The position numbers and the translations under genes were made by a program. Shown piece by piece: positions 1,248 to 64,000 of a stretch of DNA of 64,000 bases (position 1 is the first letter of the stretch; every line of letters starts with the position of its first letter). The notes beneath the pieces were generated by a model. The model ran no database searches, was not told where the DNA came from, and was given only the letters and a program-made list of their open reading frames with translations. This DNA is from Heterodontus francisci (taxonomy: Eukaryota), in assembly GCF_036365525.1 (NCBI RefSeq), contig NC_090397.1:44718893-44782892 (forward strand). The letters are read 5' to 3'.

Positions 1248-1427
1248 CTGAAAGTTAGAAAAGAAAGTTGTGTTTGAGTAATAGTAATGTATATTGTACA
1301 ATGTCAAGGTTACTGCTTTTTACTCGATATAATCACTATTAGTGGAGAAAGAAAATTATTAATATTTCCATCTTTAATATCTTATCACAATGTCATACAT
1401 GGTAAAATCAAATTTTTATATGTCATT

Positions 1428-1795
1428 TAAAAAAAAATTCTTTCATGGGATGCGGGTGTCACTGTCAAGGCCTGCATTTGTTGCCCTAATTGCCCTTGAT
1501 AACTGAGTGACTTGCTCAGCCATTTCAGAAGACAGTTACGTGTCAACCACATTGCTGTGGGTCTGGAGTCACATGTATGCAAGGTTTCCTTCCCTAAAGG
1601 ACATTAGTGAACCAGATGGGTTTTTACAACAATCAATGATTAGTTTCATGGCACCATTACTGAAAATAGCTTTCAATTCCAGATTTTTACTAATTAATTG
1701 AATTTAAAATTCCACCAGCTGCCATGTCTCCAGGCCATTAGCCTGGACCTCTCTATTACTAGTCTAGTGACATTACTACTGCGCCACCGTCTCCC
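1428..1795 (-). mobile_element. tRNA-headed SINE composed of the 5' ~300 bp and 3' ~65 bp of the LINE family at 61630
   Basis: Reverse complement starts GGAGACGGTGGCGCAGTAGTAATGTCACTAGACTAGTAA and matches 61630-61945 up to AGCAAGTCACTCAGTTATC. It then joins directly to AAGGGCAATTAGGG...CATCCCATGAAAGAA, the 3' end also seen at 34030-34105 and 45785-45858. Confidence 0.8.
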
Positions 1796-2056
1796 CTGGT
1801 AAATATATAGGCCCCGGAAATCTGTATGTTGTAATCCTAGTAGATACACTAGGATCACGTTTGATGGTTCCCTCCAGCCCTGATCTTGAGAAATTGTGTG
1901 GGATCAATGAGATGGCACCTATCTTGTATGGGGCTGATGAGTGCTCATGTCACTACAGGTGAATCCTGGAGACACTTCACCTCACTGACAGAAAGTTCTG
2001 TGTTCTCTGCCGAAACCCCATGCAGTTCTCCACTTGGGCCCTTTGGTTGAGGAGCA

Positions 2057-4977
2057 ATCCAGTGGCCCAGACTTATTCTCCAGCAACATGAGTTTAAGCC
2101 CCACCACGGCAGCTGTGGGCATTTAAATTCAATTAAATAATAAATCTGGAATAAAATGCAAATCTCATTAAGAATATAAGAAATAAGAGCTGGAGTAGAC
2201 CATATGGCCAGTCAAGCCTATTCCGCCATTCAAAACGATCGTTGCAATCTTTGGCTTTGACTCCACTTCCCCGCATGCTCCCCATATCCCTTGATTCCCT
2301 GAGAGACCAAAAATCTGTCTATCTCAGCCTTACATATATTCAATGATGGGGCATCCACAGTCCTCTGGGGTAAAGAATTTCAAAGATTCACAACCCTTAG
2401 AGTGAAGAAATTTCTCCTCATCTCATTAATAATGATCATGGATCTACTGGATTGTTGCAAAAACCCATCTGGCTCATTATTGTCCTTCAGGGAAGGAAAC
2501 CTGCTGTCCTTCCTGGTTTGGTACACATCAATGTGGTTGACTCTTAACTGCCCACTCAAACAACCACTCAGTCGCATCAAAAGAATAAAACTAGGTATCG
2601 ACCTAGGCAACGGAAATGCCAAATGTTCACCCTGTCCTGTGACCTTGCAAAACCCTCCTCATTAACATCTGGGGAATTGAGGAAAAGCTGTCCCACATAC
2701 TAGTCAAGCAATAGCTTGACATAGTCATACTCACTGAAACATACCTTACAGCCAATGTCCCAGACTCCTCCATCACCATTCCTGGATACGTCCTATTCCA
2801 CTGGCAGAACAGACTTGCCAGAGGTGGCAACACAATGGTATACAGGTGGGAGGGAGTGGCGCTGGGAGTTCCCAACATTGACTCCGGACCCCATGAATTC
2901 TCATGGCATCAGGTCAAAATGGGCAAGGAAACCTCCTACTGATTACCACGTACTTCAACTGATGAATCAGTACTCCTTCATTTTGAACACCTCTTGGAAG
3001 AAGCACTGTGGGTAGCAAGGACACAGAATGTACTCTGGGTGGGGGAACTTCAATGTCCATCACCAGTGTGGCTGGGTAGCACCACTACTGACCGAGACCT
3101 GAAGTATATCTGCCAGGAGGCCTGTGGCGGGTGGGTGAGAGAACCAACAAGAGGGAAAAACCTACCTGACGTTGCCCTCACAAATGTATGTGCTGCAAAT
3201 GCATCTGTCAATGACAGTATTGGTAGGAGTGACCACCACACAGTCCCGTCTTCACATTAAGGTCACGATCCATCATGCTGTGTAGCTCTATCACCATGCT
3301 AAATGAGATAGATACAGAATAGATCTAGCAGCTCAAAACTGGGCATCCATGAGGTGCTGTGGCCCATCAGCAGCAGCAGAATTGTATTCAGCCACAATAT
3401 GTAACCTCATGGCCTGGCATATCCCTCACTCTACCATTACCATCAAGTGAGGAGATTCAAACCTGGGTCAATGAGGAGCGTAGGAGAGCATGCCAGGAAC
3501 AGCACTAGGCATACCTAAAAATGAGGTGCCAACCTGGTGAAGCTACAAGACAGGATGACATGCATGCTAAACAGCAGAAGCAGCATACTATAGACAGAGC
3601 TAGGTGATCCCACAACTAACAGACCAAATCAAAGCTCTGCAGTCTTGCCACATCCAGTCATGAATGGTGGTGGACAATTAAACATCTAACCATAGGAGGA
3701 GGCTCCAAAAACATCCCATCCTCAATGATGGTGCAACCCAGTACATGAGTGCAAAAGACGAGCCAGAAATGCTGAGTGGATGATCCATCTTGGCCTCCTC
3801 CTAAGGTCCTCACCATCATAGATGTCAGTCTTCAGATAATTCGATTCACTCGACGTAAAATCAAGAAACCGCTGAAGACACTGGTTACAGCAAAGGCTGT
3901 GGGCCCTGACAGTTCAGTTTGGGTTCTGCCAGGGCCACTTACCTCCTGACCTCATTGCAGCCTTGGTCCAAACATGGACAAAAGAGCTGAATTCCAGAGG
4001 TGAGATGATAATAATTGCCCTGGACATCAAGGCAGCATTTGAGCGAGTGAGGCAACGTCAGGTAGGTTTTTCCCTCTTGTTGGTTCTCTCACCCACCCGC
4101 CACAGGCCTAGCCTGGCAGATATACGTCGGGTCTCGGTCAGTAGGAGCGCTGGCAAAATTGATGTCAGTGGGAATCGGGGGAAAATTCTTCACTGGTTGG
4201 AGTCATACCTAGCACAAAGGAAGATGGTTGTGGTTATTGGAGGCCAATCACCTCAGCCCCAGGACATTGCTGCAGAGGACACTGCTGCAGGAGCTCCTCA
4301 GTGTAGCATCCTAGGCCCAACCATCTTCAACTGCTTCATCAATGACCTTCCTTCCAACATAACATCAGAAGTGGTGATGTTCACTGATGATTGCACAGTG
4401 TTTAGTAGCATTTGCAACTCTTCAGATACTGAAGTACTCTATGTCCACATGGAGCAAGACTGGGACAACATTCAGATTTGGGCAGATAAGTGGCAAGTAA
4501 CATTTGCGCCACAAAAGTGCTGGGAAATGGTCATCTCCAACAACAGCGAATCTGATCATCTTGCCTTGATGTTCGATGGTATTGCCATTGCTGAATCCCC
4601 CACCATCAATATCCTGGGTGTTATCATTGACCAGAAACTTAACTGGACCAGCCGTACACACGTTGCAATGCTGCAACTCACGAAGGCTCCTTTTAAACCT
4701 GCGACCACTGCCACCTAGAAGGACAAGGGCAGCAGATGCATGGGACCATCACCACCTGCAATTTCCTTTCCAAGTTACTCACCATTCTCACATGGAACTG
4801 TATCACAGTTCCTTCACCGTTGCTGGGTCATAATCCTGGAATTCCCTCCCTAATAGCACTCTGGGAGTACCTGCACCCATAGCAGTTTAAGAAGGCAGCT
4901 CACCACCACCTTCCCAAGGGCAACAAATGCTGGTCTTGCCAGTGACGCTCACATCCTAAGAAGGAATAAAAAAAAAT
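2057..4977 (+). mobile_element. Decayed near-full-length copy of the tRNA-headed LINE (CR1/L2 group; exact clade uncertain)
   Basis: Contains a 5' head remnant, APE endonuclease motifs (DIVILTETYL, VLWVGELQC, SIGRSDHHTV) and RT motifs (ALDIKAAFER, PQCSILGPTIFNCFINDLP, MFTDDC). Has internal deletions and an A-rich 3' end, and is interrupted by a CR1 fragment at 2172-2419. Confidence 0.85.
2172..2419 (-). mobile_element. CR1 LINE 3' fragment inserted in the LINE 5' region
   Basis: Antisense EMRRNFFTLRVVNL plus CR1 3' UTR, flanked by the direct repeat ATCTCATTAA (2162-2171 and 2420-2429). Confidence 0.8.
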
Positions 4978-25240: not shown

Positions 25241-26170
25241 TATAGTGGTGAACCGTGGCTCAGTTGGTAACATGCTTGCCTCAGCCAGAAAGAAGGCTGT
25301 GGGCTCAAGTCCCGGGAGCTGAATTTTCCCGGCTCATTGGTGGTGGGCTGGGAGGCGGCAGAACTGGTAATATGGCCGGGGAAGGCATCAGGACAGGAGC
25401 CCGATGTCTTCCCGCCACCATGACATATCAAAGCAACAGCCAGAGAAGTCAAACGGCACCTAACTTGTAAGCAGCTGATGATCCCTTTAAATCGCGCTGG
25501 TGGGATGATCCCATTAAATAGTGCTGGTGGGATGATACTTCCTGCTGCTGCATGCGTGTTCAACTGTGTGAGGTTAGGAGAGGGTGTAAGCTGGAACGTT
25601 GAGCTCCAAAATGACAGCGCTGGTGTCAAACCAAAGTGATGTTATAATCTGGCTGCTCTGCACAATTCCAGCAGCCGTTCGCTGTTCATGCATTAATGCC
25701 TTCACCAATATGGCATCCGGTGTGACTTACCCAAAAGTGTGTACATACCGTACATACACCATCTTGGATACCAAATGGCACCTGTAGTGCCCAAACAATG
25801 CGCTACCAATAGAATTTTGTGTCCTTTTTATCTGAATAGAAATATGTAGTATGCACGTTTAAAGCAGAAAAACAATGAGCATGCTAGTAAATATAAATGT
25901 TGCACTATACTGTACGTAACTGAGGTAATGCATCACTTCCAGTTTAAGTAGGCAGGCTTAGTGACTGTCAGTAGTAAACACTGACGATTATGATTTCACA
26001 ACTGAACTGGCCACCTAGAGTACAGTATTAATATCCCTAGCAGCAAATAGCAGTTTGAGCACTAACTTCCCTGTTAGTCAGTGCTGGGATACTGACACAG
26101 CACAGCATTGCTTTACAATAGCTATAAAGCATTCTCTTATTTCACTGTTCGTGAAAGGTTTGTTTACACA

Positions 26171-26765
26171 ATGAACACTGCTGTTGCACTCTTTCTCCTT
26201 AATGTTGGAGTAATACTATGTACAGAGGTTCCTGTGGGATACAACAAAACTAGCAGATTCAAGAATCCAACAGAAAGAAAAGCAAATGGAGCCTGTGACA
26301 TCAAGCTGAAGCCCAGAGTGTGTGAAGATGATGAAGTCTGTGGCTATCAGGTAAACTTTCCGCCTCTCACCATTCAGCTACCCAAGCAGACAAAGCTCCT
26401 CGAAGAGACTGTCAAACAGGTAAAAAGTCTAAAAGTAACAGTAAATAAGCTGAAGAATAGGTGGCTGGAAGGAAAACAGAAAAAGCCCATCAGTCGTGAT
26501 CAAGCTACTGAAAGCATAGAAGACGGGAGAGAAAATGCCAACAGGATAACGGTGTTGGAGGAGAAAATTACCAAACTAGTAGCTTCATTACGGAATGCCA
26601 GAAACCAAATCAATGTGCTTCAGGGTCGTTTGGAAGAGATGAGTATTTTGAATATGGACACTGTTTTGCACTACATTGACAACGAGCTTTCAAATATTAA
26701 CTACACTGTGAATACGTTGAACAACAAGTGTTATACAACCTGTGCAGCTGTAGCTCAACCACTAG
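26171..26765 (+). CDS. FGL2: Fibrinogen-like protein 2 (fibroleukin), exon 1: signal peptide and coiled coil
   Basis: ATG at 26171 begins a hydrophobic signal peptide, MNTAVALFLLNVGVILC. CGYQVNFPPLTIQLPKQ matches recalled human CPYQVSLPPLTIQLPKQ. Phase-1 donor CTAG|GTAAG. Confidence 0.95.
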
Positions 26766-29223
26766 GTAAGTTAATCAGTGTATGTAATATAAAGTACAAA
26801 ATTATAAATAAGATGTTTTTATACAATTGAAACAATTTTTCCACTTTTATCAATTCTGTTTACACAAAGTCAAAATATCCAAGATTATTCAAGCTTTTAA
26901 ATTACTTTTTCCATTCCAAATAGATGTAAACTTGAAATGTTAGAATCATACTTTAATTGACACATTAAACAATGCAATACTTTGATTCAAGGAGCTTATC
27001 TGTATTACATATTGGAAAGCATTCTTACCTAATAAACAGTCAGTAGTAAGACTTCACAACTTGAAGCTTATTCAGGTTAAAATCCCACTAGTTTTTACAG
27101 TAATAGGAGAAATGTATATAAAATGTGATTTTTTTATTAAACAGTTATGATGTTGTCCATAGACTAAAATGTCCAATGTGACATACTTCCTAACCTTTAC
27201 TCCCTTTCACTTTTTAAGTAAAACTAGTTGGCTGGTTGTTCTTTCTGAATAATTAGGAAAGCATTGCCGAGCCTATTTTAGTAACTAAATTTAGAGCAGT
27301 CAGGAGTTCAATCCCCAAGGCTCTTGAAAAAGCATTAAATTAAAGTACTGCTTCACAATTTTGTGACAAAACATCATCGTGGAAACATGTAGATAGAATG
27401 ATAAACTCTTCAGTTATGGGAGTAGAAAAATTAAAATACTTTTTATATTAACTTCAACTACAGCTGATGGATTTCTTTTCTATAACTCACCTTCCACCAA
27501 AATATTATTTTAAACTACATTTGAACTCACATCAAACCACAGCAATTCGAGTCAAGTCAATTATCATAACCACACTGGAAAAACCAAGGTCTACATCTGC
27601 TCTGAGTAGTGCTGCAATTCTTTAAGATTCTCCCTGATCACTAACACTGGTAATAGTCATATATTTGAAAGAACAGTTAAAGCAAATTTAATATTACAGG
27701 AACAGAAAATATCGTAGGAAGACTAAACTCTTTATGCTCACAACTTCTTTAATCATAAACGACAATAAACTGGACTCCTACTAAGTAGTAGGAAGTTTCT
27801 TGCTAATCTTAAACAGTGAACTGATGGAAAATTAAATATTTCAATAGTGCATGCCTTAGCTAAAAATTGCATCAACTTGATTAATTTTAATGTTAGTTTT
27901 ATCGCAAACTCAGGCTTTTTTGTGGCTTTTATCACAGCAAGTATAAATTAAAAAGTAAATATTTTTGAATGTAAACAGTTTGCATATTATATTAGCATGT
28001 TATTTATTTTTACATTATAATTAAAAATAAAATTTCTGAAAAACACTGAGACAGGTTTTCTTTCTATGTAACTGACTTGCTCTAATCCCTAATTTTCATA
28101 CACTATACTTTTGCAATGCTGTGATCTTGAGGATGGTTACAGTGCTCTATGTCAAGGGTCAAGGATTAAGAATGTAAAAAACTAACAGATCTTAAGGCTC
28201 GATTTCAACTCAAGGCGGGATTCACGTGGACAAGAGGTGAGGCCTGGGAGATTGTAACTCCTGAGCTTCACCTGCATTGGTCCCACCCAAAACTGGCGGC
28301 AGGAGAAAAAATATAGTAAATTTGAAATAAAAGCACTTAAAAAGAAACAAATGATCGAGAAGGACTGGGCATGCACATTGCTTTTGATGAAGTTTTCTGT
28401 CCTGGTAGTTAACTGTAATGTTCAAACCTTTATTGTGAAGCATAATCATAACATTCTTTCTTTACAAATGGAATGCTTCCTTTTTAGATTAACTCTGAAA
28501 TGAAACTATTAATATTAAAGAATATCTTGAGGCACAGAAACTACCAAATTATTTCCATCACATCCTGTTAATATTTAATTGTGGAATCTACCTTTATTGG
28601 TTTTCCTATATGCAGGACTCCAGTTATTAAAGGGCCATCCTTATCACTAAAATGGCTAGCAAATTTTGTTCTGTTTGCAAGCATACAATATGATATTGCA
28701 AAATATTTTTAAGTGCATAACTTGCTTATCTCCCTCTGCAGTCAAATATTGTTTGTCAAACATGTTTTCTTGAATACTGTGCTCTATTAAAACCACAGAT
28801 ATAGGGAAGTAGTTAGTTAACATAACATATACCGTACAGATTAATTGCACAGTAGTAATTGTTAGGAAAAAAATTGAAAAAAAATTATGTTATTTGGCCC
28901 CATTTGTGTAATTCGTTTTTGCTTGCTTTCCAAATCATCTCACTGATTGGAAAGTAGAATTCCTACAATTTGAAACACAGAGAAAACACTGATCACTGTC
29001 AATTAAGACTTCTCTTAAGAATTTTCTAACATCTGACTGAGATCTGCTTGTTTAAAAACCATTCAAAATAAAACTTTTCCCTTTTCTAGTTGAATTATAT
29101 TTAATGTTGTGAAAGATTAACAATAATGTATACCTGTTAATTGTAAAACAGTTCAAGCTGGTCAGAATTCATCTTTTGGTACAAAAGGTGAGGTTAATGA
29201 CCTATTTCCATACTTACTTTCAG

Positions 29224-29927
29224 TGGTACAATGGATGCCTCAAGATTGCTCAGATCGTTACAAACTGGGATATCGGAAAAGTGGCATCTATGAAATTGCC
29301 AAAGGCTCTAACAAAAGCTTTTCAGTTTATTGTGATATGAAAACTCTGGAAGGCGGCTGGACAGTACTACAGTCTCGCAAAGACGGCAGTGTCAATTTTA
29401 ATCGCACCTGGGCAGATTACAAAAATGGTTTTGGGAATCTATCAACAGAATTTTGGCTGGGAAATGACAAAATACATCTATTGACAAAATCCAAGGACAT
29501 GATCTTGAGAATTGAAATTGAAGATTGGGATGGCATCCAAAAATATGCCACATACAATCAATTCTTCATTGCAGATGAAGATCACAATTATCGCCTGACT
29601 GTTACTGATTACTCTGGCACAGCTGGTGATGCACTGCATTACAGCAAGAATTACAACCATGATCAAAAATACTTTACCACCAAAGACAAAGATAATGATA
29701 ATTACCCTTCAGGTAACTGTGGGGCCTATTACAGCTCTGGTTGGTGGTTTGATGCTTGCATGTCTGCCAATCTCAATGGCAAATATTATAAAAAGAAGTA
29801 CAAGGGTATACGAAATGGTATTTTTTGGAGCACTTGGTACAATGCACCAGATGAAACTCTGAGTGGCTACCGCCATGCTTTTAAGTCAGTAAGAATGCTC
29901 ATCAGGCCTAAAGCATTTGTGCCATAG
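29224..29927 (+). CDS. FGL2: Fibrinogen-like protein 2, exon 2: fibrinogen C-terminal (FReD) domain
   Basis: Acceptor tactttcAG|TG in phase 1. Motifs YCDM..GGWTVLQ, EFWLGNDKIHLLTKSK, YPSGNCGAYYSSGWWFDACMSANLNGKYY and IRPKAFVP* match FGL2. Spliced CDS is 595+704 = 1299 nt, or 432 aa. Confidence 0.96.
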
Positions 29928-31698: not shown

Positions 31699-32440
31699 GC
31701 AAACAATGTACATTTAATTGTGCACGGTCTATTCCATTTACATCAATGTTATTTATGAGCAGTGAGTTCTCCAAGTATCCTAACCAAAATTCCTCCTTCA
31801 ACCAATACCATATTTTTTTTTTAAAAAGATAAACTGGTCTTTTGTCTTGTTTTCTTTGGGTTCATGATGCGTGCAAAATGGCTGCTACATTTGCCTATAT
31901 AAATCATTACATTGAAAAGTAATGAATGCATTTAAAGCACAGCGGGGTAGATGCAAAATTAAGTAGATTTGGGAAGGGGTAGGGAGATGTAGGGGCAAGG
32001 GATAAAGTTAAATTGTTGGAGATGGTCTTGCCAATGATTAAGAACACTGGAGGAGAAAAAACACAAAGGAAAACAAGGTCAAGGAGACAATTTCCAGTAA
32101 TTTTTTCTCATCTGCAATAAATTATAATGCTGTCCACACCTCTCCTCCCATAGATAAATGTATAGTCCTCTCCTGCAGTAATGAACTGGCCATGGCAGAG
32201 GGTAAAGCAAACTCTTACCTCCTCCCTCCCTCCAGCAAAGGTGAAAATCTGGGCTAGGTGGAGGGATTGGCAACTAGATATACTGAATTCTCTTTGTCCA
32301 CCCACCTTTGATTTTCTTTGGTGGAGTCTGCCAAGAGTTACGTAATTTGATGTTCAACTCCTTCTGCTGTAGCATTTGTTTTCAAATTCACTTGCTGAAA
32401 AGAAAATTGGTTGCCTGTCCCCCAATAACGTTGTTTTATC

Positions 32441-34106
32441 AGTCTTCAGCCAGAAGTGCTGACTGGATGATCCATCTCGGCCTCCTTCTGAAGTTACCAG
32501 CATCACAGATGCCAGTCTTCAGTCATTTCGATTCATTCCGTGTGATATCAAGAAATGACTGAAGGCACTGGATACTGCAAAGGCTATGGGCCCTGACAAC
32601 ATTCCGGCAATAGTACTGAAGACCTGTGCTCCGGAATGCGCTACGCCCCTAGCCAAGCTGTTCCAGTACAGCTACAACACTGGCATCTACCCGGCAACGT
32701 GGAAAATTGCCCATGTATGTCCTGTACACAAAAAGCAGGACAAATCCAACCCGGCCAATTACCACCCCATCAGTCCACTCTCAATCATCAGTAAAGTGAT
32801 GGAAGGTGTCAGCGACAGTGTTAACAAGCGACACTTGCTTAGCAATAACCTGCTCAGTGGCGGTCAGTTTGGGTTCCACCAGGGCCACTCAGCTCCTGAC
32901 CTCATTACAGCCTTGGTTCAAACATGGACAAACAAGCTGAACTCAAGAGGTGAGGTGAGAGTGACTGCCCTTGACATCAAAACAGCATTTGACTGAGTAT
33001 GGCATTAAGGAGCCCTAGCAAAACTGGAGTCAATGGGAATCAGAGGGAAAACACTCCGCTGGTTGGAGTCGTACCTAGCGCAGAGGAAGATGCTTGTGGT
33101 TGTTAGAGGTCAATCATCTCAGCTCCACAGCATCACTGTAGGAGTTCCTCGGGGTAGAGTCCTAGGCCCAACCATCTTCAGCTGCTTCATCAATGATCTT
33201 CCTTCAATCATAAGGTCAGAGGTGGGGATGTTCGCTGATGACTGCACAATGTTCTGCATCATTTGTGACTTCTCAGATACTGAAGCAGTTAGTATAGAAA
33301 TACAGCAAGACCTGGACAATATCCAGGCTTGGGCTGATAGGTGGCAAGTAACATTTGTGCCACACAATTGCCAGGCAACGACCATCTCCAACAAGCGAGA
33401 ATCAATCTATCTCCCCTTGACATTTAATGGCATTACAATCGCTGAATCCCCCACTGTCAACATCCCGGGGGTTACCACTGACCAGAAATTGAACTGGAGT
33501 AGTCATATAAATACCGTGGCTACAAGAGCAGGTCAGAGGCTAGGAATCCTGTGGCAAGTAACTCACCTCCTGACTCCCCAAAGCCTGTCCACCATCTACA
33601 AGACACAAGTCAGGAGTGTGATGGAATACTCTCCACTTGCCTGGATGGGTGCAGCTCCAACAACACTCAAGAAGCTCGACACCATCCAGGACAAAGCAGC
33701 CCGCTTGATTGGCACCCCATTCACAAACATTCACTCCCTTCACCACTGATGCACAGTGGCAGCAGAGTGTACCATCTACAAGATGCACTGCAGCAATGCA
33801 CCAATGTTCCTTAGATAGCACCTTCCAAACCCATGACCTCTACCACCTAGAAGGACAAGGGCAGCAGATGCATGGGAACACCACCACCTGCAAATGCCCC
33901 TCCAAGCCACACACCATCCTGACTTGGAACTACATCGCCAGTCCTTCACTGTCAATGGGTCAAAATCCTGGAACACCCTTCCTAACAGCACTGTGGGTGT
34001 ACCTACCCCATATGGACTGCAGCAGTTCTCGAGGGCAATTAGGGATGGGCAATAAATGCTGGCCTAGCCAGCAACGCGCACATCCCATGAACAAATAAAA
34101 AAAAAA
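32441..34106 (+). mobile_element. 5'-truncated copy of the tRNA-headed LINE (RT and 3' end)
   Basis: Motifs MGPDNIPAIVLKTCAPE, KSNPANYHPIS, ALDIKTAFD, GVPRGRVLGPTIF and MFADDC. The 3' end reads GGGCAATTAGGGATGGGCAATAAATGCTGG... followed by poly(A). Confidence 0.9.
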
Positions 34107-45696: not shown

Positions 45697-45858
45697 CGGA
45701 ACTCCCTTCCTAACAGCACTGTGGGTGTACCTACCCCTAATGGACTACAGTGGTTCAAGAAGACAGCTCACCGCCACCTTCTCAAGGGCAATTAGGGATG
45801 GGCAATAAATGCTGGCCTGGCCAGCGACGCCCACATCACATGAACGAATAAAAAAAAA
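45697..45858 (+). mobile_element. 3' end fragment of the tRNA-headed LINE
   Basis: Matches 33970-34105 (CCTAACAGCACTGTGGGTGTACCTACC...GGGCAATTAGGGATGGGCAATAAATGCTGG) and ends in poly(A). Confidence 0.85.
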
Positions 45859-60591: not shown

Positions 60592-61499
60592 TTTCATGAA
60601 GACTCTCACCAGCCAAGAATGAGGCATATTAATTTTGTCACATGAACATTAATTTTAAACTGTTGCTGGAGTGGAGAGTTGACTTGCTTTGAAGATATCA
60701 GCAGTGGCTGGCAAAAAATTTGCATTCGAAGAGACAGTCACCTAGGAAAAGACAATGGGAACTGCTCGCTCATTCAATTACCAGAGGTTGGTCTGGGCAA
60801 TGGTGATCCACATCTTATCAGTGTAAGAGACAGCATTACACACCTGCTTTGAAATCCACAAACTGCAGGAGTGGTTGTTCCCAAATAAGGGGGTTAGTCA
60901 CATGACTAATCTGCTGGCCAACTTGGAGTTTTGAATTGTGTTCACAGGACAGTTTGAAGACAGAGACTGAAGATTGCAACTGAACTTGGAACAACAGTCT
61001 CTCTCCTGTCTGGCTCTCTCTCTTTCGCTAATCTCAAGAAAGAAAAGACTCCTACATCGAAACAGGTTTTAAAGCATGCACTGGGCCCCAACAAAATGGC
61101 AAGACTTACCGGCAACCAAAGACTCTGCATCGAACACAAAGGGACCATAACTAAAACACAGCTATTGCCTCAAACTTTTCCCCTTTATTCTTTCTACTTT
61201 TTCTGTCTCTAGTCGCGTGTGGGTTTATCGCGTATTCATGCTAGCTTGGTTGTGTCGCCTATTCGTAGTCATTCACCCAATTGGAGTTTAAGATGAATAA
61301 ACTTCCACCTTTCTTGTTTAAATCTAAGAAAACCTTTTCCAAAACCAAAGATTTCTTTGTCTTACAATTGGAAAGCAGTGTACAAGGATTCACTGAGGGG
61401 GAGCTAAAAACACTATTTTTAAAATTAAACTCCTTTACGGTTAAATCAGGCAAAGGCTGAGAGGGAATCCCTAGACCCCTTTCTCACCTGGTCGTAACA
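60592..61499 (+). mobile_element. Solo LTR (~908 bp)
   Basis: Ends TTTCATGA (probably a mutated TG start) / TCGTAACA, internal AATAAA, and 4-bp TSD CTGT (60588-60591 and 61500-61503). Confidence 0.7.
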
Positions 61500-61629
61500 C
61501 TGTAAATATCCTCCCAGACCCCATACCCCAATCTATCAAAACTGCACAGAATAACACTGCGTAAATTCCTTGCACCCCATGGGAAGCTGGAGTTGTAATC
61601 TGGAGGCACTGATATTTTAACAATGTCAT

Positions 61630-64000
61630 GGGAGGTGATGGCATAGTGGTATTGTCACTGGACTAGTAAACCAGAGACCCAGGGTATTACTCTGGGGACA
61701 TGGGTTAAAATCCCACTACAGCAGAAGGTCGAATTTGAATTCAATTAATAAAAATCTGGAATTCAAAAGCCAGTCTAATAATGGTCATGAAACTATTGTC
61801 GATTGTTGTAAAAACTCATCTGGTTCACGAATGGCCTTTTAGGGAAGGAAATCTGCTGTCCTTATCTGTGACTCCAGACCCACAGCAATGTGGTTGACTC
61901 TTACGTGCCCTCTGAAATGGCCTAGCAAGCCACTCAGTTGTATCTAACCGCTATGAAGTCAATAAAAAGGAATGAAACCGGACGGATCACCCGGCATCGA
62001 CCTAGGCACCGGAAATGACAACTGCAAACCCAGCCCTGTCCACCCTGCAAAGTCCTCCTTGCTAACATCTGGGGGCTTGTGCCAAAGTTGGGAGAGCTGT
62101 CCCACAGACTAGTCAAACAACAGCCTGACATAGTCATGCTCACGGAATCATACCTGACAGACAATGTCCCAGACACTACCATTACCATCCCTGGGTATGT
62201 CCTGTCCCACTGGCAGGACAGACCTAGCCGAGGTGGTGGCACAGTGATATACGATAGTGGGGGAGTTGCCCTGGGAGTCCTCAACATCGATTCTGGACCC
62301 CAAGAAGCCTCATGGCATCAGGTCAAACATGGACAAGGAAATCTCCTGCTGATTACCACCTAACGCCCTCCGTCAGCTGATGAGTCAGTACTCCTCCATG
62401 TTGAACACCATTTGGAGGAAGCACTGAAGGTGGCAAGGGCACAAAATGTACTCTGGGTGGGGGACTTCAATGTCCATCACCATGAGTGGCTCGGTAGCAC
62501 TGCTACTGACCGAGTTGGCTAAGTCCTAAAGGACCTATCTGCTAGTCTGGGTATGCGGCAGGTGGTGAGGGAACCAACAAGAGGGGAAAACATACTTGAC
62601 CTCATACTCCCCAATCTGCCTGCCGCAGATGCATCTGTCCATGACAGTATTGGTAGAAGTGACCACCGCACAGTCGTTGTGGAGACTAAGTCCTGCCTTC
62701 ACATTGAGGATACCCTCCTTCGTGTTGTGTGGCACTATCACCATGCTAAATGGGATAGGTTTCGGACAGATCTAGCAGTGCAATACTGGACATCCATGAG
62801 GCGCCGTGTGCCATCAGCAGCGGCAGAATTGTACTCAACCACAATCTGCAACCTCATGTCCAGGCATATCCCCCACTCTACCATTAATATCAAGGCAGGA
62901 GACCAAACCTGGTTCAATGAAGAGTGCAGGAAGGCATGCCAGGAGCAGTGCCAGGCATACCTAAAAATGAGGTGTCAACCTGGTGAAGCTATAACACAGG
63001 ACTATCTGCGTGCCAAACTGCGTAAGCAGCATGCGATAGAGCTAGGCGATCCCATAACCAACGGATCAGATCTAAGCTCTGCAGTCCTGCCACATCCAGC
63101 CGTGAATGGTGGTGAACAATTAAACAACTAACTGGAGGAGGTGGCTCCACAACTATCCCCATCCTCAACGATGGAGGAGCCCAGCACATCAGTGCGAAAG
63201 ATAAGGCTGAAACATTTGCAACAATCTTCAGCCAGAAGTGCCGAGTTGATGATCCATCTCGGCCTCCTTCTGAAGTCCCCAGCATCGCACATGCCAGACT
63301 TTAGCCAATTCAATTCACTCCACATGATATCAAGAAATAACTGAAGGCGCTGGATACTGCAAAGGCTATGGGCCCTGACAATATTCGGGCAATAGTACTG
63401 AAGACCTGCGCTCCAGAACTTGCCATGCTCCAGAACTTGCCGTGCCCTTAGCCAAGCTGTTCCAGTGCAGCTACAACACTGGCATCGACCCTGCAATGTG
63501 GAAAATTGCCCAGGTATGTCCTGTACACAAAAAGCGGGATAAGTCCAACCCGGCCAATTACCGCCCCATCTGCCTACTCTCAATCATCAGTAAAGTGATT
63601 GAGGATGTCATCAACAGTGCCATCAAGCAGCACTTGCTTAGCAATAACTTGCTCATTGACGCTCAGGGCCACTCAGCTCCTACCTCATTACAGCCTTGGT
63701 TCAAACATCGACAAAAGAGCTGAACTCACGAGGTGAGGTGTGAGTAACTGCCCTTGACATCAAGGCAGCATTTGACCGAGTATGGCAGCAAGGAGCCCTA
63801 GCAAAACTGAGGTCAATGGGAATCGGGGGGGAAACCCCTCCACTGGTTGGAAACATACCTAGCGCAAAGGAAGATGGTTGTGGTTGTTGGAGGTCAATCA
63901 TCTGAGCTCCAGGACATCACTGCAGGAGTTCCTCAGGGTAGTGTCCTAGGCCCAACCATATTCAGCTGCTTCATCAATGACCTTCCTTCAATCATAAGGT
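61630..64000 (+). mobile_element. 5'-intact copy of the tRNA-headed LINE (head, endonuclease, RT start); runs off the window
   Basis: A box TGGCATAGTGG and B-box-like GGTTAAAATCC. EN begins at ~62050 (KVLLANIWGL...PDIVMLTESYL, VGDFNVHH, IGRSDH). RT motifs KSNPANYRPICLLS, ALDIKAAFDRVW and GVPQGSVLGP. Scattered stops. Confidence 0.9.

Follow-up and report, generated by a model that had tools for sequence, protein, structure and literature searches.

Long interspersed elements (LINEs) are as a rule described as RNA polymerase II (Pol II) units, and SINEs as noncoding Pol III units (PMC5786205, PMC10886601). Heads derived from tRNA are known from SacSINE1 and the CmiSINEs, which have L2 tails (PMC5499810), and from the MetaSINEs, whose heads resemble tRNA-Thr (PMC4824008); like the element described here these are tRNA-headed, but they do not code for protein. 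Bipartite SINEs such as Bov-tA, CoeSINE4 and SINE2_Gav consist of a tRNA head, a LINE 5' part and a LINE 3' tail, and the donors found for them are RTE and Vingi only (PMC5786205). A protein-coding LINE with a tRNA-like sequence, RTE-1_DAn of the RTE clade, was noted together with its relatives in a single sentence, which includes no position, polymerase or terminator analysis (Kojima 2018, PMC5786205); a literature search for its name returned that paper alone. The lepidopteran Zenon, a single-frame CR1-group LINE with poly(A), is accompanied by Persaeus, a short derivative made of its 5' and 3' parts, which carries the Zenon 5' UTR and is reported to have neither tRNA homology nor a Pol III promoter (PMC6740152).

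Zenon elements have also been reported from five elasmobranchs, all of them without ORF1 and with poly(A), and they make up 290 Mb, or 6.8%, of the white shark genome (Stuart et al. 2026, PMC13343379). The supplement of that paper holds 10 Zenon consensuses (7 elasmobranch from 5 species, 2 hagfish and 1 coelacanth), and the main elasmobranch ones (CarCar_, HypSab_, RhiTyp_, ScyCan_ and SquAca_Zenon, n = 5) measure 3244 to 3314 nt. The terms tRNA, pol III, polymerase, promoter, frameshift and start codon have no match in its main text, nor have the first four in the main text of a preprint (10.64898/2026.01.13.699120). The family is known; its tRNA-type promoter head, avoidance of T runs and start problem apparently go undescribed in the main text of PMC13343379. 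Among literature titles and abstract openings, none dealt with a Pol III-transcribed autonomous LINE or a tRNA-headed Zenon; Repbase, Dfam and subscription journals could hold a prior note.

The window analyzed here is a 64,000-nt stretch of Heterodontus francisci contig NC_090397.1 (positions 44,718,893 to 44,782,892, forward strand). It contains the following copies and parts of the element:

61630-64000, forward strand: copy A, with head, endonuclease and first part of the reverse transcriptase (RT), cut by the window edge
61630-61715, forward strand: tRNA-like head of copy A, with A box, anticodon-like loop, inserted hairpin and B box
61716-61945, forward strand: 5' body, common to the short element, its second half near-invariant between sharks and ray
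61946-61971, forward strand: A-rich spacer, of a length that varies between species (by eye)
61972-62112, forward strand: AUG-led leader frame (MKPDG...), 46 codons, overlapping the endonuclease frame, which lies at -1
62052-62666, forward strand: APE-type endonuclease domain (PF03372, E = 2e-9; PF14529, E = 7e-10)
62667-64000, forward strand: linker and first part of the RT, with several private frameshifts, continuing past the window
32440-34105, forward strand: copy B, 5'-truncated, with RT (32733-33407), C terminus, 3' stem-loop (34042-34086) and poly(A) (34097-34105), and without T4
2053-4976, forward strand: copy C, older, 72 to 86% identical to copy A, with a CR1 fragment in the head, internal deletions and a poly(A) tail
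45698-45858, forward strand: copy D, a 3'-end fragment with poly(A)
1437-1798, reverse strand: short bipartite element, in which tRNA head and body (up to about copy A position 61940) are followed directly by the terminal ~65 nt of the LINE

Elsewhere in the window, open frames at 26096-26827 and 29127-29924 (forward strand) look like exons of a secreted fibrinogen-domain gene, which we take to be FGL2-like; the second matches PF00147 with E = 4e-81.

Judged by its sequence, the element at 61630-64000 is a decayed copy of the elasmobranch Zenon LINE, a CR1-group element of ~3.3 kb. We file it there because its 5' region matches consensuses placed as Zenon in PMC13343379: their first 400 nt are visibly (by eye) the same sequence as 61630-62030, and in this comparison nothing in sequence sets them apart from the window element, which belongs to the same family. 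The original prediction, which had allowed that the family might already be catalogued, was correct in this. The endonuclease and RT lie in one frame, poly(A) tails are present at 34097-34105, at 4968-4976 and in copy D, and ORF1 is absent, the first endonuclease motif lying at 62052, 422 bp after the 5' end and so where the predicted distance of ~420 bp had placed it. The missing ORF1 is weaker as an argument for an unusual mode of expression because all Zenon elements lack it (PMC13343379). Copies A and B overlap (63222-64000 with 32440-33216, 85% identity) and together cover nearly the whole element, as had been stated, with a total closer to 3.3 than to 3.2 kb after allowing for losses of 13 nt in A and 27 nt in B. 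The RT of copy B matches PF00078 (E = 3e-24), and the endonuclease domain of copy A carries two private stops. In the RT region of copy C, a 98-bp piece (4047-4144) is an inverted duplicate of the copy's own endonuclease segment 3085-3181, to which it is 95% identical (82% to copy A), pointing to a local inversion-duplication.

A search of the RT half against 1.84 billion representative proteins returned nameless single-frame proteins of ~940 to 1000 aa at ~40% identity, an amphioxus protein and a whale shark gene model with 69% identity. Homolog searches found no long proteins related to the endonuclease half or to the leader peptide encoded from 61972, in both cases weak evidence; searches of viral contigs gave 0, 1 distant and 0 loci, and those of metagenome contigs 1 distant locus. 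A quick RT tree of 114 rows (from 116, after removal of two short loci) pairs the window RT with the whale shark model as sisters (support 100) inside a weak 39-row group (support 83). The tree separates the window RT from the window CR1, but it includes no named Zenon protein and its deep support is weak.

The head was predicted to be tRNA-like, and the boxes named are present: an A box, TGGCATAGTGG, at 61639-61649 and a B-box-like GGTTAAAATCC at 61703-61713, 53 nt apart in copy A, a tRNA-like spacing as in type-2 Pol III units. In an Rfam alignment, 61638-61717 matches tRNA weakly (16.3 bits, E = 2, under the gathering score of 29), and the anticodon-like loop (61663-61669) reads AGU, a Thr anticodon, which suggests a likeness to the MetaSINE heads (PMC4824008). 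ARAGORN called no tRNA on the window head. An extra hairpin (61678-61696) precedes the T arm; its counterpart in the short element (1748-1730, reverse strand) keeps the pairing with different letters, as do the published heads (by eye).

Contigs from four sequencing runs, two of which (X1 and X15) come from one sample, were mapped on 61300-64000 at 80% likeness; contig depth in the two runs presumed to be RNA is no measure of transcription or of the relative abundance of parts. In run X7, 858 contigs have unrelated sequence before 61630, and summed contig depth is 14 to 45 upstream of this position versus more than 400,000 downstream. The DNA immediately before copy A (61000-61500) belongs to another repeat, whose end resembles by eye that of a long terminal repeat; runs X1, X15 and X16 cover it deeply, but X7 has almost none of it. 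All seven elasmobranch Zenon consensuses begin at the equivalent of 61630 with an A-box/B-box head. On these sequence comparisons, the 5' end of the element is 61630, the tRNA 5' end, in five species. The B box reads GTTCGAATCC in the white shark, whale shark and catshark consensuses and GTTCAAATCC in three dogfish rows; the stingray form is one base shorter. When the first 400 letters of each row of the supplementary table (numbered to at least 910 rows) were searched for these two motifs, the 6 rows matched were all elasmobranch Zenons, and the MetaSINE supplement, all but one file of which was covered, gave no motif match (PMC4824008). In the 3 Zenon rows from hagfish and coelacanth the head is missing, and their first 400 letters contain runs of four or more T (T4+) (by eye; the ends may include flank). 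By this sequence comparison, the tRNA head is particular to the elasmobranch lineage among the Zenons compared. Upstream of 81 control LINE frames (below), neither a strict A/B-box pattern nor blastn with the head gave a match; for the nine loci grouping with the window RT, L005, L058 and L073 were inspected, the others having little or no upstream DNA. ARAGORN called no tRNA in 55 of 82 relative loci, which is uninformative, since the tool also misses the window head.

The head could in principle belong to a SINE that happened to insert before a 5'-truncated LINE, and it does exist as a separate short element in the window. This chance adjacency is refuted, and we give it practically no weight: the same junction recurs in copy C, in all 7 elasmobranch consensuses (PMC13343379) and in 4 of 4 runs, where, among the contigs listed, contigs span the body into or up to the endonuclease. 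The head is hence a family structure conserved in sharks and a ray, as predicted. Copy C, originally cited at 2057-4977 for the same head-to-endonuclease junction, bears this out in part: it is colinear with copy A from the body into the endonuclease, but its A box is missing and a ~255-bp CR1 fragment (about 2172-2426) sits in its head, so that the junction is only partly displayed.

Vertebrate Pol III stops at runs of T4 or longer. T4+ runs number 1 in 61627-64000, 0 in 32436-34105 and 3 in 2050-4976 (one of these within the inverted piece of copy C), and the predicted lack of TTTT on the sense strand of 61841-64000 and 32441-34095 was confirmed by count. The single run in copy A (61837-61840) is private, as had been stated; it is absent from 1798-1437, 2427-2550 and all 7 consensus heads (by eye). 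No T4 is common to several copies, and none lies in the first 400 nt of the seven elasmobranch consensuses (by eye).

Several null models were run, the cross-codon null being chosen last. Against base shuffles, T3 runs were depleted (7 versus 19.7 expected in A, 6 versus 13.4 in B), with the absence of T4 borderline (P = 0.04 per copy); against dinucleotide shuffles, significance was lost (T4, P = 0.16 to 0.34). For 2595 nonoverlapping in-frame bases from copies A and B, synonymous shuffles gave 9 versus 16.4 T3 runs (P = 0.0006) and 0 versus 3.1 T4 runs (P = 0.02), without a depletion of A, C or G runs, and CpG-preserving synonymous shuffles gave 9 versus 14.5 (P = 0.01) and 0 versus 2.1 (P = 0.08). 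For copy A alone, the CpG-preserving null was not significant (T3, 5 versus 7.4, P = 0.14). With protein and CpG fixed, TTT spanning codon boundaries occurs 2 times versus 9.8 expected (P = 0.0015), whereas AAA (25 versus 27.3), CCC (32 versus 34.0) and GGG (25 versus 26.1) are at expectation, as is cross-codon TTT in the window CR1 frames (57 versus 58.7). A first context test was confounded by CpG decay, the window CR1s also showing the effect (odds ratio [OR], 0.45); with G and A contexts removed, the OR was 0.23 (p = 0.04), versus 0.71 (n.s.) for CR1 and 0.34 (p = 0.02) for the GC-rich relative L003. TTT is the most depleted non-CpG trimer.

As controls we used 81 LINE frames from 82 related loci, of which L001 yielded none that qualified; nearly all come from prokaryote-labeled genome bins and are taken by us as animal host DNA. 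Loci L003 to L082 comprise many intact animal-type CR1-group LINE frames in bacterial or archaeal bins (401 confirmed stretches, 80 kept), likely host DNA carried over. The cross-codon TTT ratio is 0.20 in the shark element, below all 81 controls (0.59 to 1.5, median 1.0), and not one of the 81 frames is free of T4. The nine loci grouping with the window RT have 0.35, 4.0, 6.3, 6.8, 7.0, 7.4, 7.8, 8.7 and 9.5 T4 per kb. The lowest, L003, has 1 T4 in 2859 nt of frame and a cross-codon ratio of 0.59; the DNA compared covers its frame and 3' end, the latter with T5 and T6. Since L003 combines T-run poverty with high GC, composition can explain part of the T scarcity.

The avoidance of T runs is real and T-specific, and goes beyond protein and CpG effects. 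Because A runs, the complement of T runs on the opposite strand, occur as often as expected, the effect is confined to one strand, and avoidance of self-insertion is an unlikely cause; avoidance of polypyrimidine is not seen either, pyrimidine runs not being depleted. The original prediction was of an element purged of TTTT terminators; the depletion of TTT is robust, but the absence of TTTT by itself is not significant (P = 0.08): with 2 to 3 runs expected in the coding region given its codons, that absence proves little. Avoidance of T3 would fit weaker terminators, or terminators one mutation away.

These data bear on the conventional explanation, an ordinary Pol II LINE with a capped RNA, whose tRNA head would be a passenger acquired by template switching or serve another use (TFIIIC binding, RNA structure), and whose scarcity of T runs would come from base and codon composition or from selection against U runs at the RNA level. 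Most of the missing T4 is indeed accounted for by a low T content (22%), scarce Phe (2.3%, the second lowest value in a comparison with the 81 controls) and a preference for TTC; L003 is biased in the same direction, if less strongly, and the published record favors the Pol II explanation as well, LINEs being described as Pol II units and the tRNA-like sequence of RTE-1_DAn having been noted without a Pol III claim (PMC5786205, PMC10886601). It is less at ease with an element that begins exactly at the tRNA 5' end and keeps near-canonical boxes in sharks and a ray, with the cross-codon ratio, and with two AATAAA motifs within 340 nt of the start of copy A. Nor do the 8 AUGs that precede position 61972 in copy A suit it, as they make cap-dependent scanning awkward; plain scanning from the 5' end is in fact unlikely whichever polymerase is used. 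We regard the Pol II explanation as unlikely, though a serious contender.

Where translation begins is a second peculiarity. The endonuclease frame was predicted to lack an obvious ATG; no in-frame AUG is indeed conserved, but copy A does have an in-frame ATG at 61953. It is followed by an in-frame TGA at 62016, and both are private to copy A, the TGA site being a sense codon in three consensuses and in gene model P0170; a start at 61953 was rejected as private. A start at TTG 61938 was rejected too: copy A and three consensuses have this codon in frame with the endonuclease, but in whale shark it is out of frame and in dogfish a stop follows (by eye). The MKPDG frame, first described as a short uORF, probably marks the true start and is no decoy: its AUG at 61972 is kept in 6 of 7 consensuses, after the variable A-rich spacer and with a purine at -3, and likely initiates translation. 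It lies 30 codons before the first endonuclease motif, near the position of the in-frame Met of relatives L003, L005 and L073 (~15 to 25 codons before). The N terminus of L058 (723-900) carries before the endonuclease the motif GDIELNPGP, a 2A-like ribosome-skipping motif; the window element has no such motif.

The leader frame from 61972 ends inside the endonuclease, and the stingray consensus shows the -1 offset too. Counted by hand, four consensuses differ from white shark at 12 sites in the first 14 to 18 codons, of which 8 are third positions of the AUG frame; 5 of the third-position changes are synonymous, 5 of 8 differences are third-position once CpG transitions are dropped, and no frame-breaking indel occurs. 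The pattern lends weak support to the AUG frame being read. No slippery heptamer (X XXY YYZ) was seen by eye in 61972-62060 or in the consensus leaders, nor a significant fold in 61970-62190, so that the features of programmed -1 frameshifting were not found. The 5' body (61716-61945) matches no Rfam family and has no significant overall fold, and the 5' region folds no better than its shuffles (z = 0.38). An HDV-like 5' ribozyme gave no Rfam match, and a rough descriptor of it had no match in the 3 decayed copies. The second half of the 5' body may be an internal ribosome entry region.

An awkward start would also be expected if labor were split, with Pol III making the template RNA and the protein supplied by less frequent capped Pol II transcripts (read-through or spliced) or by those copies, a minority, that are in frame. 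Such a division would account jointly for the head, the T-run avoidance and the start. In SquAca_Zenon-2, a shortened dogfish consensus, the AUG is in the endonuclease frame (by eye), and the EukProt gene models P0166, P0167 and P0170 join the two frames at three different places, so an individual copy can be in frame or be annotated that way. The -1 offset in both copy A and the stingray consensus speaks against it. LINE proteins copy their own RNA, and a frame under protein-level selection is most simply explained by a protein that does so. We consider split production improbable, more so than the Pol II explanation.

Our preferred reading is end-to-end transcription by Pol III with cap-independent initiation and a frame switch, to which we assign a probability of about 0.5. 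The tRNA head together with the T-run avoidance makes it likely that the full 3.3-kb RNA is produced by Pol III. TFIIIC would bind the A and B boxes inside each copy, and Pol III would initiate at the first base, read the terminator-poor body and the A tail, and end at the first T run in flanking DNA. Uncapped Pol III RNAs are poor messengers. Ribosomes would have to enter internally, likely via the near-invariant block ahead of the A-rich spacer, start at AUG 61972 and, near 62030-62050, change frame by -1 so as to read the endonuclease. In copy B, the 3' stem-loop (34042-34086) is more stable than expected (z = -4.3); CR1-group LINEs and their SINEs are usually recognized through such a stem-loop. 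Once bound to it, the protein would copy the RNA in a target-primed reverse transcription like that of other CR1-group LINEs, and would also mobilize the short derivative. Within this scheme the Pol III step is the better supported one; the entry site and the frameshift are each somewhat short of an even chance.

The short element (1798-1437) has the architecture of Bov-tA, CoeSINE4 and SINE2_Gav, and it alone is short and noncoding as a SINE2 should be, copy A belonging to the 3.3-kb coding element. In those bipartite SINEs the head was added to the deleted derivative only (PMC5786205), whereas here the autonomous LINE carries it; unlike Persaeus (PMC6740152), the shark derivative is tRNA-headed, as is its LINE. 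The window copy has lost its B box, and in place of the A tail of the LINE copies it has a T9 run at its end (1420-1445, reverse strand); this change may be confined to the one copy, or the short family may carry a Pol III terminator of its own. In each of the four runs, loose contig ends at 61939-61943 run on into the LINE 3' tail, with two different continuations. Two different joints favor repeated deletion of the LINE, which would then have given rise to the short element, over capture of a SINE head by a LINE.

Taken at its widest, the proposal is of an autonomous coding retrotransposon that makes up several percent of shark and ray genomes, was present before the shark-ray split and is transcribed by Pol III from end to end, its uncapped 3.3-kb RNA being translated by internal entry at the AUG leader with a noncanonical -1 switch. 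Such a natural Pol III mRNA and living LINE-SINE intermediate is a tentative and, on sequence evidence, rather unlikely picture as a whole. If true, a high-copy vertebrate LINE on a tRNA promoter would break the division between LINEs with Pol II and SINEs with Pol III, and a 3.3-kb Pol III RNA would be shown to serve as a natural messenger through a compact cap-independent translation element. A direct route to tRNA-SINEs would also follow, namely, one internal deletion of a tRNA-headed LINE.
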